DNA of 60,273 nt, counting the filler, from Sphacelaria rigidula (Eukaryota): the NCBI GenBank assembly GCA_964200075.2. It is 6 parts of 6 records of this genome, joined end to end, with 100 filler letters (N's around TTAATTAATTAA, not from the genome) between each part and the next. Parts side by side here need not be neighbours in the genome. Positions count along the whole stretch, not along the records: positions 50,313 to 60,273 come from CAXNAA020007408.1; 5 more parts are not named here. One strand, 5' to 3'. The notes under the pieces were generated by a model. The model did no database searches. It was not told the DNA's origin and was given only the letters and a program-made list of their open reading frames with translations. Both the position numbers and the translations under genes were made by a program. Below are positions 54,376 to 59,848 of this stretch, in pieces (position 1 is the first letter of the stretch; every line of letters begins with the position of its first letter).

Positions 54376-54758
54376 CTTTATTTTCAAAATTCTGACCAGT
54401 GGTGAGCCTCATTACTTGGATTTAGATTACCCTCTCTCCCCCCGCAAAAATTCGGAATCTGGGGGGAAAGTGGGTGTGGTACATAGACAGAGATTCACCA
54501 CCCCTTGAACGCATACCAGATAATCAAACCGTCATTTTCATTTTCATTGACTTGTGCGGCAAGAAACAACTTTATTTTCAAAAATTTCGACCAGTGGTAA
54601 GCCTTATTACTAAGATTTAGATTACCCTCTCTCCCCCCGCGAAAATTCGGAATCTGGGGGAAAGATGGGTGTGGTACATGGACAGAGATTTACCACCCCT
54701 TACACACATACCAGATAATCAAACCGCCATTTTCATCTTGATGGACTTGTGCGGCAAG
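54376..54758. repeat. Tandem duplication (about 190 bp) of the DHFR-TS 3' end and 3' UTR
   Basis: 54376-54563 resembles 54570-54758; the copy encodes LPHKSMKMKMTV* versus [12 protein letters not shown]. Confidence 0.9.
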
Positions 54759-54943
54759 TAGCCCTTCACCTCCAGGTCTGAAAAAGTGAACGAGTCGATG
54801 TCGTCTTTGGACGGTTCGATTGATAACGTGGGGAATGGTCGCGGTTTCCGACGCAGCTGCTCCTTAAGCGCGTCGACGTGGTTGACGTACACATGCGCGT
54901 CACCGATTGTATGCACGAATTCGCCCGCCTTGAGTCCGCACGC
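54719..54943 (-). CDS. DHFR-TS: DHFR-TS exon 4
   Basis: [29 protein letters not shown]. Confidence 0.95.
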   Translation of the reverse strand, partial: ACGLKAGEFVHTIGDAHVYVNHVDALKEQLRRKPRPFPTLSIEPSKDDIDSFTFSDLEVKGYLPHKSIKMKMAV

Positions 54944-57900
54944 CTGTATGGCAATCGATACCAGTCGCCCCCGAGGGAAACACAGAGTCAAGTGAGACGA
55001 CTGAAGGCTCAGGGTGCCGGCCGCTGGAGTTCACCACCGTTTGCCGGTACGTTGCAGGAAACCGCACCACACACCACTTGTCAGCTACCGCGACTGGTCA
55101 AGACTTCTGGGGTCATCACTCATCGGTGACAATATGTTAACATATTTACACATGAGGTTTTCGATCTGAAAAAAAATGACAATGTTTCTTTCAGGAAGGG
55201 TGATTACTGTTGACCGAACAGGTCGACTGTTCACTATGTTTTCAACAAATAACGTCAGGAACATGACCCATGAAAAACGAGTCCTTACAAAAAAACACGC
55301 AGGGGGTGGAAACTGCCTGCAGCGGTATCGGTTCATCATTCGCGCGCGACATGACAAGTGAGTGACGCTATGGTAGGGGTGCACAATTAGTTTTTGAGGT
55401 TAGAACTGTTAGGAGCCCTTCTTCTTATCCAAAACTCGAATTATGAAAATATGTGAGAGTACGCCGGGATTAATATGTCAATGTGCTTGGGATATCCCGC
55501 ATGAATTTGCAAACGGGGATGCCCTGACCCATATTCTTGTGCTAATAGAATCGTTAGGAACCCCTGAACCAGACAAGATTTTGCGCAAAAAGTGCACCCC
55601 TACCGTAGCATTGCCGAAGTTAAACGTATCATACTGCCACATTCCAAACCGTACAGTACCACGGTACGCACGCGATGTCTTGGTATCTTATAAATGAACA
55701 AAACAACGGTTCACTGGATCACTGTCCGGATATGCCGAAGGCATTCACTTTGTACCCCGCCTGCACATCGTATCACACTCCCTCTTAGCAACTAAAAATA
55801 AATTGAGGGTGGAAAACAATCCGCTCACCTGAGCAACAAGACGCGTGAGGAGCGCGTAAGAGGCGATGTTGAATGGAACGCCCAGTCCCATGTCAGCGCT
55901 TCGTTGGTACATCTGGCAGGACAGCTCGCCGCTCGCCACGTAAAACTGGCAAAACATGTGACAAGGGGGTAAAGCCATCTTCCCGAGGTCCGAAGGGTTC
56001 CACGCGGAAAGCACGATACGCCTGTCTTCTGGGTTAGTCCTGCGGTACACACGGGTGACCCATGGGTGGGATACGAGCGCGCTCGCCGTTCTCAGGCTGG
56101 GCTGGTGAAACTGAAACTTGGTATGATCCAAAATAATGACGCTGGTGCACTACATTGTTTTGCTGGTGCGTCATTTCGTTGGTGTATATTTAGTGAGAAA
56201 TTAAGTACTCTTGACATCAAAAAGATTTTCTACTGCTCTGTTCGAGCAGCTTTCTAACTTTGAGCTGCAGAGGAGTTGCAGTTCGGAGCACGTAATCTTG
56301 TATACTCGGTACGGGACCAAGTTAGATATCGAATATACCTAGCCACAGCAAAGTGACCGTAGAGGATTGGCTCATACAACACATGGGAGGAAGCAGGGGA
56401 TGATTGGATAATCGTCTTGCAGAGCAGAATCATTTGTGAAGAAAAACAACCATCGGATCGATCGCACATGCGACAGCGGAGCGACAGCAGACATGCACAA
56501 GCACACGAATCAGAACTGGCGGGTTGTGGATGCAGTGCCCCGTAATATCATAAAAGGCAAAGCTATTTACATCGCCGTTGTAACGGTCAATATTCTCACT
56601 TGATCTTCTTGATGCACTCCGCCAGCTGATCCACGCCCTTTCCCGTGTAGTCAGCGTGCATGTCGGTGTATTCCGCTCCGAAATGTCGCCACTGGAAACC
56701 GTACACCGGACCGAGGTCTCCCTCTTCGCGCTCTGTGAGTCCCAGACTGTCGGATCAGAGGCGCCGTGAGCGAAGTACGGGCACTTGCGGTCAGTATTCC
56801 AAAGCAATAACTATACAGGACGCCACATATCGTACACATGGCACGAAGTAACGGCCACCAGCAAATGTGAGCGGAGGAGAGCGTGCCCGCAGGCTGGATT
56901 TTTGGACACCCAGGCACCCACTCTTCCTCCCACGCGGGTCGGTATTTTAATTATTAGGCACTCAAAAGTCGAAAATCTTAGGAATTGAACCAGTCAATCT
57001 CTCAATTGATGTATGTGCTTCTGGCCTATCTTTGCTCAGTCTCGTACCCACTCTGCTGCCGTGGCGTGACACTAGCTACCCTGAGTCAAGGGTGATCGTG
57101 GAATGTAACTTGAGGAAAAATTGAACAGAAATGGCACATAAAGGATCAAGCGTAGCGTTATCTGTGGTCTGCGCATCGGGAACGAAGCGTAAAGCGTGCA
57201 TCGCACAGGCAAATGAATCGGATCGAGTCAATTATCGAAGTATCAGGGGCAACCGTTTCGTTGTGCGCCGCTCCTGCAGAGCTCGTGTATCAGAGTTCCC
57301 ACTCAAATTTGTGGTCCCAAAACAACTGCTTCGTCAGACACGGGGCATGCGGTCTTCCCCCTGATGGTGCCAACACGGCTACTAATCAGTCTCCCCATTC
57401 TCCGATGGTGCAGCTTCCGACGATCAACTGGTACGCTCGCAGAGCCCCGTCTTCATGGACCAGAGACTTCGGGGCGAAGGGGGGTGGTATCCAGCTACAT
57501 GCTGGAGAAAATTTTCTAATTATTAGAGGGGCAGGGGGGGCAGGACATTCGCCGGATATCACCACCCCCTCAGCTAACCCTGCCCCCCAAAACACCAAAA
57601 TTTGACTTCCGGGTCCTTGGTGTGGTGACGTGATCAAATCAGTAAAACGGTGAAACGTCAACTCATACTCGTCCCAGAAACCACGCACCCCACTACCTTC
57701 CGGACTAGACAGCTACATAAATGGCTATTTCCCGTTGTCGTATCTTTGTGGGAACTCACCCGTCGAGAAATTCCCTAGACCCATTTCCGTCCCAGATATG
57801 GATACCCTTGTCCTTCAGCACGCTCGCGTTAGTGCACCCAGAGATGAACCACAGCAACTCCTCCGCCACCCCCCTCCAGAACACGCGCTTGGTGGTCAGA

Positions 57901-59033: not shown

Positions 59034-59329
59034 GACAGGAATGTTATCCCGGCGTTCGTGAGCTAAAGCTTGAAACTTGAAGAAGTAGCACAGGATAATT
59101 AGCGCTGCAGTCGTGGATACTGGTGAGAAATTCAAACGTGTCGAGTACCAGCGACGCATCCACCCGACAACAGCGTATACAGCATGTCGAAATTTGAAAA
59201 TATATTTTACTTTTTCATCATCACATTTGCTCTTCCATCGCAGAGCCGTAATATGAAAGCATATCCAGAGCACTCTATCTCCAAGTTGTTTCGTACAACC
59301 CCTGATCCGCAGCGTGCCTAGCCGTGGTC
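59034..59329. promoter_or_regulatory. Putative bidirectional promoter
   Basis: 296 bp between divergent ATGs, with an AT-rich core at about 59188-59215. Confidence 0.55.
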
Positions 59330-59848
59330 ATGTTGATATTGCTCAGTGCGAAGGCTGCCAGCGTGGCGGTGACTACGCCGAGGAGACCCCGGATACACCT
59401 CTCCTCTAGAATGCAGTATGTGGCCTCCACCGCCGCTCATGCATTGTGTTGCTCGGTAGTCTACATTTCAGAAGGTAGAAACGATAGTCTACTTGATTCC
59501 CTCTCGTCAGCGGCAGCAAGCGATCACAAGGCAGCCCTCATAAGGGAGTTTAGGGACCCGACGTACCACCGTACCGGGTATACAATAGGCGGGAGTCCTG
59601 ACGGTGTTGTCCGGGCATCGCTGGACATTAGTCGGCGGGCGCTGCGGGCGATCGATCTTCGAATGCACGAGGCAAGTCACCCACGGGTAGGAGTCGTCGA
59701 CCATATCTCGATTCACCCGCTTGGCATCAGTACCGAAGCGAGGGCCGGCTCCTGTGAGGCGGGCAGGGAGATCGCGGAGTCGCTGGGTCAGGAAGGGGTA
59801 TCTGTATTGCTCTACGGGGACTTGAAGGATGGTCGACGTTTAGCAGAG
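59330..59848 (+). CDS. Glutamate formiminotransferase (FTCD N-terminal domain, plant GFT-type), exon 1; gene runs off the contig
   Basis: CSVVYISEGRN, DPTYHRTGYT, IDLRMHEASHPRVGVVDHISIHPL, LLYG..RRLAE; donor GAG|GTGAG at 59849; alternative ATG at 59411. Confidence 0.88.

Follow-up and report, generated by a model that had tools for sequence, protein, structure and literature searches.

Structure of the locus

The stretch of DNA analysed here, which we call the window, holds 60,273 nucleotides of the brown alga Sphacelaria rigidula (assembly GCA_964200075.2), joined from six parts of six records of this genome. In its last part (positions 50,313 to 60,273, from CAXNAA020007408.1), a gene for dihydrofolate reductase–thymidylate synthase (DHFR-TS) on the minus strand stands head to head with a formiminotransferase-like gene (FT) on the plus strand. 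An earlier note on this DNA had described two divergent folate genes with starts 296 bp apart between 54719 and 59848. These figures proved exact: the start codons at 59033 and 59330 leave a gap of exactly 296 bp (59034-59329), and the bounds coincide with the stop codon of DHFR-TS and the last base of FT exon 1. Contigs from three RNA-derived runs (X6, X7, and X8, all from one study) and one DNA run (X1) were compared over positions 54300-60273. Only the first exon of FT lies inside the window, and the rest of the gene is beyond its end. The pair is laid out as follows.

54300..54718, minus strand: DHFR-TS 3' untranslated region (UTR); RNA contigs run 767-1047 letters further beyond 54300
54719..54943, minus strand: DHFR-TS exon 4, coding part (Pfam, E 1.3e-26); the translation terminates in the stop codon at 54719-54721
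54944..55828, minus strand: DHFR-TS intron 3, 885 nt, with a very high-copy repeat at about 55300-55700; RNA joint 54942/55828
55829..56039, minus strand: DHFR-TS exon 3, with LPPCH (Pfam, E 2.9e-35; RNA contigs)
56040..56599, minus strand: DHFR-TS intron 2, 560 nt (RNA contigs, splice sites)
56600..56746, minus strand: DHFR-TS exon 2 (Pfam and RNA contigs); joint ambiguous by 1 nt, set to give GT..AG
56747..57759, minus strand: DHFR-TS intron 1, 1013 nt, GTGAGT..AG; joint 56746/57760 in X6, X7, and X8, not in the DNA run X1
57760..59033, minus strand: DHFR-TS exon 1, coding part, with the DHFR domain, the low-complexity junction, and the first part of the TS domain (Pfam); RNA contigs cover 57760-59173; ATG at 59033
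59034..59173, minus strand: DHFR-TS 5' leader, to the limit of the RNA contigs of X6, X7, and X8, with an in-frame upstream ATG at 59159
59174..59282, no strand: predicted promoter core for both divergent genes, 109 bp from the outermost RNA contig end of one to that of the other; G+C 0.37 against 0.58-0.61 in the flanking exons
59283..59329, plus strand: FT 5' UTR, to the RNA contig limit; contig starts at 59283, 59292, and 59293
59330..59848, plus strand: FT exon 1, 173 codons, with a presequence-like N-terminus of about 40 amino acids followed by most of FTCD_N (Pfam, RNA contigs); second in-frame ATG at 59411
59849..60273, plus strand: start of FT intron 1, donor GTGAGA, with high-copy repeats (X1 word depth), running off the window; loose contig end after 59850 in X6 and X8

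When joined computationally, the four DHFR-TS exons give an intact spliced frame of 1857 nt, or 618 codons. Pfam recognises DHFR_1 in exon 1 (expectation value, E, 2.4e-29) and finds Thymidylat_synt split over four minus-strand open reading frame (ORF) pieces (E 4.5e-31, 3.5e-09, 2.9e-35, and 1.3e-26), which jointly cover profile positions 2-266 of 266. With a DHFR domain and a complete TS domain in one RNA-supported frame, the gene encodes a bifunctional DHFR-TS. DHFR-TS runs the deoxythymidine monophosphate (dTMP) cycle. Its translation contains VIMGRKTW in exon 1, counted among the nucleotide and folate motifs of DHFR, and LPPCH in exon 3; we take the latter to be the active-site cysteine motif of TS, with the catalytic residue. 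The junction between the two domains (about 57960-58340, minus strand, in exon 1) is a low-complexity segment of about 125 amino acids rich in Ala, Gly, Ser, and Glu. The size of brown-algal DHFR-TS proteins ranges from 580 to 621 amino acids.

On the opposite strand, FTCD_N (PF07837) matches the FT ORF over profile positions 2-140 of 176 (E 3.4e-33, 115.3 bits against a cut-off of 27). From its first ATG at 59330, the exon stays open as far as the canonical donor GTGAGA at 59849, and all of the motifs that the earlier note had named (YISEGRN, Y.R.GYT, and one of the HPR type) are present in it, as YISEGRN, YHRTGYT, and HPRVGVVDHISIHPL. Identity to brown-algal orthologues is 50-66%, and FT retains each of the 19 invariant columns of the alignment, those of the HPR..G.VDH motif among them.

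The first 40 or so residues of FT (59330-59452) contain no acidic residue, five Arg or Lys, and many Ala, Ser, and Thr. Orthologous FTs carry similar, poorly conserved N-terminal extensions, for which the AlphaFold model of the Undaria protein has low confidence. From this composition, the N-terminus would be an organelle presequence, probably mitochondrial.

Transcripts and the shared upstream region

Both DHFR-TS and FT are transcribed and spliced. A single contig in each of X6, X7, and X8 joins 54942 to 55828, 56038 to 56599, and 56746 to 57760. These contigs are RNA-derived, because three GT..AG introns are skipped in them but retained in the DNA run X1. They extend upstream of DHFR-TS to 59173 (X6), 59165 (X7), and 59056 (X8). 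Separate contigs of 1.85-1.94 kb, found in all three RNA-derived runs, start at 59283-59293 and span FT exon 1; in X6 and X8 they continue after 59850 into sequence absent from the window. In the RNA-derived contig of X7 only, there is a G>T difference at 59327 in the FT 5' UTR, probably an allele or strain difference.

Divergent orientation, a short common upstream region, and transcription of both genes mark the locus as a probable bidirectional-promoter pair. The E2F consensus TTTSSCGC has no match in the 296-bp gap (the whole window has 8 matches, against 8.4 expected), and a search of the gap for repeats and palindromes returned nothing beyond two weak inverted repeats. Both transcripts were assembled in each of the RNA-derived runs, but three samples from one study are too few for a correlation, and contig depth is not a measure for comparing the expression of the two genes.

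A possible second DHFR-TS isoform

The sole ATG in the DHFR-TS leader, at 59159, is in frame with the coding region and, if used, would add a hydrophobic, signal-peptide-like leader of 42 amino acids. The coding regions of DHFR-TS and FT would then be 170 bp apart. The context of this codon is weak (T at -3, C at +4), while that of 59033 is strong (G at both -3 and +4). A leader that is in frame, starts with Met, and is at least 15 residues long, with a hydrophobic core directly ahead of the usual Met, was found in 27 of the 38 scorable brown-algal DHFR-TS first-exon proteins (that of the window included), and the DHFR-TS gene models of Scytosiphon and Nemacystus begin at such an upstream Met. 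The recurrence of such leaders suggests a second, targeted isoform of DHFR-TS, which may be produced through leaky scanning or an alternative transcription start.

Family, clade, and fold of the formiminotransferase-like protein

Full-length brown-algal FT orthologues have 288-336 amino acids and match FTCD_N at 130-142 bits. The C-terminal subdomain, PF02971, which for the window's own gene lies outside the window, scores below threshold in these orthologues (11.5-11.6 bits against a cut-off of 24). Cyclodeaminase (PF04961) was not found in these full-length orthologues with Pfam; the C-terminus of the window's own protein lies beyond the window. Green-lineage FTs give the same domain picture, with a strong FTCD_N, a weak PF02971, and no cyclodeaminase. 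Against the FtcD equivalog model TIGR02024 (cut-off 221.25 bits), two orthologues score 109.3 and 106.6 bits and the window exon 66.2 bits. Because the equivalog cut-off is missed, sequence alone does not justify the name "glutamate formimidoyltransferase".

A maximum-likelihood tree of 37 sequences separates 29 eukaryote-type rows from 8 PF02971-bearing rows of bacterial and FTCD type, with a split support of 100/100. Brown-algal FTs form a clade (100/98) whose branching order is that of the species tree, nested in an ochrophyte group that adjoins green-algal and other eukaryotic FTCD_N-only proteins. The green lineage of the tree consists of Mesotaenium, Tetraselmis, Coccomyxa, and volvocine algae, with no sequence named as a land plant. 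On this tree, and with its single FTCD_N, FT belongs to the plant/algal stand-alone clade, in agreement with the earlier note, which had called it plant-type.

The fold was compared through an orthologue. The AlphaFold model of the Undaria FT (predicted local distance difference test 89.5, predicted template-modelling score 0.84) superposes on the two-subdomain FT domain of pig FTCD (1qd1) with a Foldseek E of 1.3e-23 and a template-modelling score of 0.72-0.73 over 308 of 319 residues. As modelled, the fold is retained even where Pfam fails on the C-terminal subdomain. At the level of sequence, FT matches 1qd1 with E 5.3e-17, and H117-P118-R119, invariant in 18 of 18 aligned sequences, is aligned to the "hprmg" stretch of 1qd1. 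The histidine of this motif is presumably the equivalent of the catalytic His82 of pig FTCD, the catalytic base.

To our knowledge, plants have no histidine-utilisation pathway, and disposal of 5-formyltetrahydrofolate (5-formyl-THF) has been shown for prokaryotic relatives alone. Prokaryotic glutamate formiminotransferases can stand in for 5-formyl-THF cycloligase (Jeanguenin et al. 2010, summarised in PMC3223725), and the available text of PMC3223725 proposes a plant FT paralogue as an alternative route of 5-formyl-THF disposal.

Conservation of the pair

The earlier note had named synteny as a check on the pair. Within brown algae the pair passes this check, so absence from related genomes, one of the three refuting cases that the note had set, is excluded; outside them, it was not seen in 80 FT loci. 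A profile-free search with FT exon 1 recovered 17 representatives at E ≤1e-30, from clusters including Undaria pinnatifida, Choristocarpus tenellus, and a Nannochloropsis relative. Linkage in other species was judged by consecutive accessions, equal-sized contigs, and ORF sizes. In Ectocarpus siliculosus, FT (CBN76612.1) and DHFR-TS (CBN76613.1) have consecutive accessions and lie on the same contig, and the same is true of Ectocarpus sp. CCAP 1310/34 (CAB1110670.1 and CAB1110671.1). Six of the eight Ectocarpus species or strains with a listed FT member have FT and DHFR-TS on a same-sized contig, among them Ectocarpus sp. 4, 6, 12, and 13, in each of which the FT contig and the DHFR-TS contig are equal in length. 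The DHFR-TS of Ectocarpus sp. 8 is on a contig of just 1,178 bp, and E. fasciculatus has no listed DHFR-TS member.

Contig sizes extend this picture beyond Ectocarpus. Among 113 DHFR-TS contig sizes, 17 of the 43 FT contig sizes recur, whereas a near-miss control puts the chance expectation at about 0.5. Two of these matches (1381 and 2315) probably arose by chance, as their DHFR-TS partners do not resemble those of brown algae. That leaves 15, namely Scytosiphon promiscuus (58,294), Ascophyllum nodosum (1,165,449), and 13 further contigs of 2.2-28 kb. One contig of 2,250 bp holds both a 216-aa FT first-exon ORF and a 409-aa DHFR-TS first-exon ORF, with at most 369 nt left over. Orthologous first-exon ORFs end where those of the window do (...REFLDG and ...LAEV), and because both ORFs on the 2,250-bp contig are first exons ending at the window's exon boundaries, only a close head-to-head arrangement fits there. 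In Discosporangium (12,672 versus 8,047) and Choristocarpus (6,553 versus 3,724), the earliest-branching brown algae examined, the genes are on different short contigs, and a DHFR-TS fragment of Laminaria digitata, on an 11,361-bp contig, likewise differs in contig size from a further FT contig of 11,420; contigs as short as these cannot decide linkage.

Outside brown algae, DHFR-TS was absent from 80 of 80 metagenome FT loci searched by tblastn with the spliced DHFR-TS as query, even at E 0.01. Clustering at 90% nucleotide identity gives 33 groups of these loci, among which are sequences of eustigmatophyte-like, green picoalgal, and plant-like type; upstream of the FT match, 58 loci extend by at least 1 kb and 42 by at least 3 kb. 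No folate gene stood beside FT in 11 representative metagenome loci, where the neighbours were GCFC, peroxidase, malic enzyme, EF-hand, a REV1-like polymerase, a Suv3 helicase, and NAPRTase. None of 17 long FT homologues was a fusion with DHFR or TS, the only additions being cyclodeaminase, SnoaL, RCC1, and golgin-like segments. The DHFR-TS/FT pairing is thus a brown-algal trait and not a recurrent association. We found no description of the pair in the literature searched, although the supplements of a preprint (10.1101/2024.02.19.579948) may contain relevant synteny or orientation tables.

In compact green-alga-like metagenome contigs (L023, 9422-14086; L024, 251-4077; L074, 2237-5549), FT lies tail to tail with a REV1-like gene (IMS and BRCT) or downstream of a malic enzyme gene. 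This microsynteny is lineage-specific and includes no folate partner.

Surroundings of the pair

The earlier description of the surroundings as full of repeats was borne out. Among the 104 ORFs of at least 110 amino acids in the first 54 kb of the window, Pfam recognises Ty3-like retroelement fragments only. Remains of a Ty3/gypsy-like element are spread over several ORFs at 32524-35099 (minus strand), with integrase core, integrase zinc-binding, RNase H, and reverse transcriptase matches. Consecutive long ORFs of 463, 372, 246, and 554 amino acids at 24665-30138 (plus strand) and a separate 483-aa ORF at 36824-38272 (minus strand) have no Pfam match and may be part of an uncharacterised repeat or element. 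Paired 44-base N runs at 9964-10063, 20027-20126, 30090-30189, 40152-40251, and 50213-50312 (440 N in total), spaced at intervals of about 10 kb, resemble marks of masking or scaffolding and do not look biological.

Repeats also reach into the introns of the pair itself. Word depth in X1 rises to 319,252 at 55300-55700 in DHFR-TS intron 3 and to 41,451-55,026 at 59900-60273 in FT intron 1, against about 25-27 in unique sequence, and many chimeric joints connect the two intronic repeats. The DHFR-TS/FT pair is a tight island within repeat-rich DNA, where a contig of the DNA run X1 passes from 55586 to 60045 without a break or mismatch.

Discussion

We consider it likely that DHFR-TS and FT are an ordinary case of a brown-algal bidirectional-promoter pair: sharing a promoter would have frozen their order, and that both partners are folate enzymes would be happenstance. 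According to the available text of a genome-wide study of Ectocarpus (PMC7784034), 61.7% of genes flanking intergenic regions adjacent to a transcription start site are in divergent pairs, the median gap is 409 bp, and both genes of a divergent pair have one nucleosome-depleted region in common when they are less than about 600 bp apart. The preprint 10.1101/2024.02.19.579948 describes short divergent gaps and alternating strands as a general feature of brown algae, with alternation common to the clade of Fucophycideae, Dictyotales, and Ishigeales. Because divergent pairs with short gaps are the brown-algal default, a head-to-head gap of 296 bp is the norm. The pair would have arisen as closely spaced divergent pairs ordinarily do in these genomes, and it would date from before Ectocarpales, Laminariales-like lineages, and Fucales diverged and have been kept ever since. 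Both promoters would overlap in one nucleosome-free region, where a split by rearrangement or transposon would harm an essential gene. Conservation of the pair would be expected because the promoters overlap, and the two genes would have stayed tight here despite tens of kilobases of adjoining repeats. FT itself would most likely be an organelle-targeted, folate-dependent formyl or formimino transferase, and 5-formyl-THF disposal, by analogy with the prokaryotic COG3643 enzymes, is the leading candidate role. Neither co-regulation nor metabolic coupling of DHFR-TS and FT is required to explain the data.

Several points weigh against this explanation. That both partners use folates is, by rough estimate, a coincidence of about 0.1-0.2% for a given gene, so there is room for selection on the linkage itself. 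Brown algae are already known to conserve one head-to-head pair from a single pathway, M1PDH3-M1Pase1 (10.1101/2024.02.19.579948). RNA contig ends, which bound the 109-bp core at this locus, are not mapped transcription start sites, and for the other species the same orientation and spacing are presumed. Finally, a constraint from the shared promoter is suggested by genome-wide Ectocarpus data and not by this locus.

The strongest alternative is a selected folate mini-cluster, in which the genes are kept together because their co-transcription from one promoter matters; we hold this to be possible but rather unlikely. For example, FT could clear 5-formyl-THF, an inhibitor of serine hydroxymethyltransferase (SHMT), or recycle one-carbon folates whenever DNA synthesis calls for induction of DHFR-TS and the dTMP cycle. 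DHFR-TS and FT both work on tetrahydrofolates, but roughly one same-pathway neighbour pair per genome would be expected by chance. The pair has been kept across several brown-algal orders, and even amid the repeats of this genome its two genes stand no more than a few hundred bp apart; however, DHFR-TS accompanies FT in none of the 80 loci from outside brown algae, the 11 representative loci have no folate neighbour, and no long FT homologue among 17 is fused to DHFR or TS. Each of the three RNA-derived runs yielded both transcripts; the gap is without an E2F consensus. A precedent comes from the mannitol cycle, whose pair M1PDH3-M1Pase1 is head to head and conserved (10.1101/2024.02.19.579948, available part), and a plant FT paralogue has been proposed to dispose of 5-formyl-THF (PMC3223725).

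The earlier note had gone from closeness to a co-regulated mini-cluster, and this step fails. Such pairs are the default in brown algae, and transcript levels of divergent partners in Ectocarpus are uncorrelated, with a Pearson coefficient of 0.042 overall and 0.054 for pairs closer than 600 bp; in the text available, the authors conclude that divergent partners, close pairs among them, are independently regulated genome-wide (PMC7784034). The supplements of that study, as available, have no row for dihydrofolate, thymidylate, or formimino terms, and we found no expression table naming the DHFR-TS or FT genes, including by CBN76612, CBN76613, D8LBA3, and D8LBA4. A further objection is cellular. 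The main DHFR-TS isoform has no counterpart to the presequence-like N-terminus of FT; because of this N-terminus, FT may not share a compartment with that isoform, which would make a specific tie to the dTMP cycle less convincing. That the two genes are a selected unit in which FT is a folate-recycling partner of the dTMP cycle, co-induced with DHFR-TS and, for example, removing SHMT-made 5-formyl-THF under high thymidylate synthesis, appears quite unlikely to us.

It is very improbable that FT is a pseudogene or an untranscribed relic next to a working DHFR-TS. The gene can be read for exon 1 only and its family scores below the FtcD equivalog cut-off, but spliced transcripts of 1.85-1.94 kb occur in three runs, the exon is intact and open to a canonical donor with its 19 invariant columns kept, and the orthologues are full length in a tree that follows the species tree. 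These same observations exclude a second of the refuting cases that the earlier note had set for itself, an untranscribed or degenerate FT. It is barely conceivable that the genes are chance neighbours peculiar to this genome, or an assembly artefact, without evolutionary persistence: the window alone is compatible with this, as are the different short contigs of Discosporangium and Choristocarpus, but the unbroken DNA contig from 55586 to 60045 and the recurrence of the pair in many species argue otherwise.

Comparison with known systems places the pair within a familiar architecture. Like the brown-algal divergent pairs described in the accessible parts of PMC7784034 and 10.1101/2024.02.19.579948, it is head to head, has a gap below the 409-bp median, and has transcript ends near enough for one nucleosome-depleted region. 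It differs from ordinary pairs of this kind in that both partners are folate enzymes and in that the pairing has been followed across many species; at this locus, it is known from genes and transcripts. M1PDH3-M1Pase1, as far as the available text describes it, is likewise a conserved head-to-head pair of metabolically related brown-algal genes that is arranged otherwise in sister groups, but its enzymes catalyse steps of one cycle, whereas a direct metabolic hand-over between DHFR-TS and FT is only putative. A more distant parallel is found in mammals, where DHFR and MSH3 (Rep-1) reportedly diverge from a bidirectional promoter. There too DHFR is said to face its neighbour across a short shared promoter, but the arrangement would be of independent origin, with a mismatch-repair gene as partner and a monofunctional DHFR.

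For FT, the closest known relatives are the plant and algal stand-alone FTs (COG3643 paralogues, At2g20830; "GFT" of PMC6451014), which share its clade, a single FTCD_N, a length of about 290-330 amino acids, and the lack of a cyclodeaminase. The brown-algal proteins form their own ochrophyte subclade, and neither group is biochemically characterised in the sources as available. Prokaryotic COG3643 enzymes belong to the same superfamily, have the conserved HPR motif, and are the source of the candidate 5-formyl-THF activity; unlike the brown-algal FTs (107-109 bits against 221), they carry a recognisable PF02971 and pass the FtcD model, and a 100/100 branch lies between the two. With the FT domain of mammalian FTCD (1qd1, 1tt9), the brown-algal proteins share the whole-domain fold, as judged from the Undaria model, and an aligned HPR histidine, while identity is 24%, there is no fused cyclodeaminase, and the presequence-like N-terminus is extra.

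The plant and algal stand-alone FT family is without an established function, and a lasting DHFR-TS neighbourhood across most brown algae provides a cheap and testable lead. For genetic work in brown algae, the locus also supplies a bidirectional promoter that is short and defined. If the two genes are kept together as a selected unit, the pair would be the first functional handle on the plant and algal formiminotransferase family, and the conserved alternative leader of DHFR-TS could put one isoform in the compartment of FT. If, instead, the genes are expressed independently, this would be a clean case of gene order frozen by promoter sharing and not by function, and it would call for caution in inferring "clusters" in eukaryotes with alternating gene orientation.

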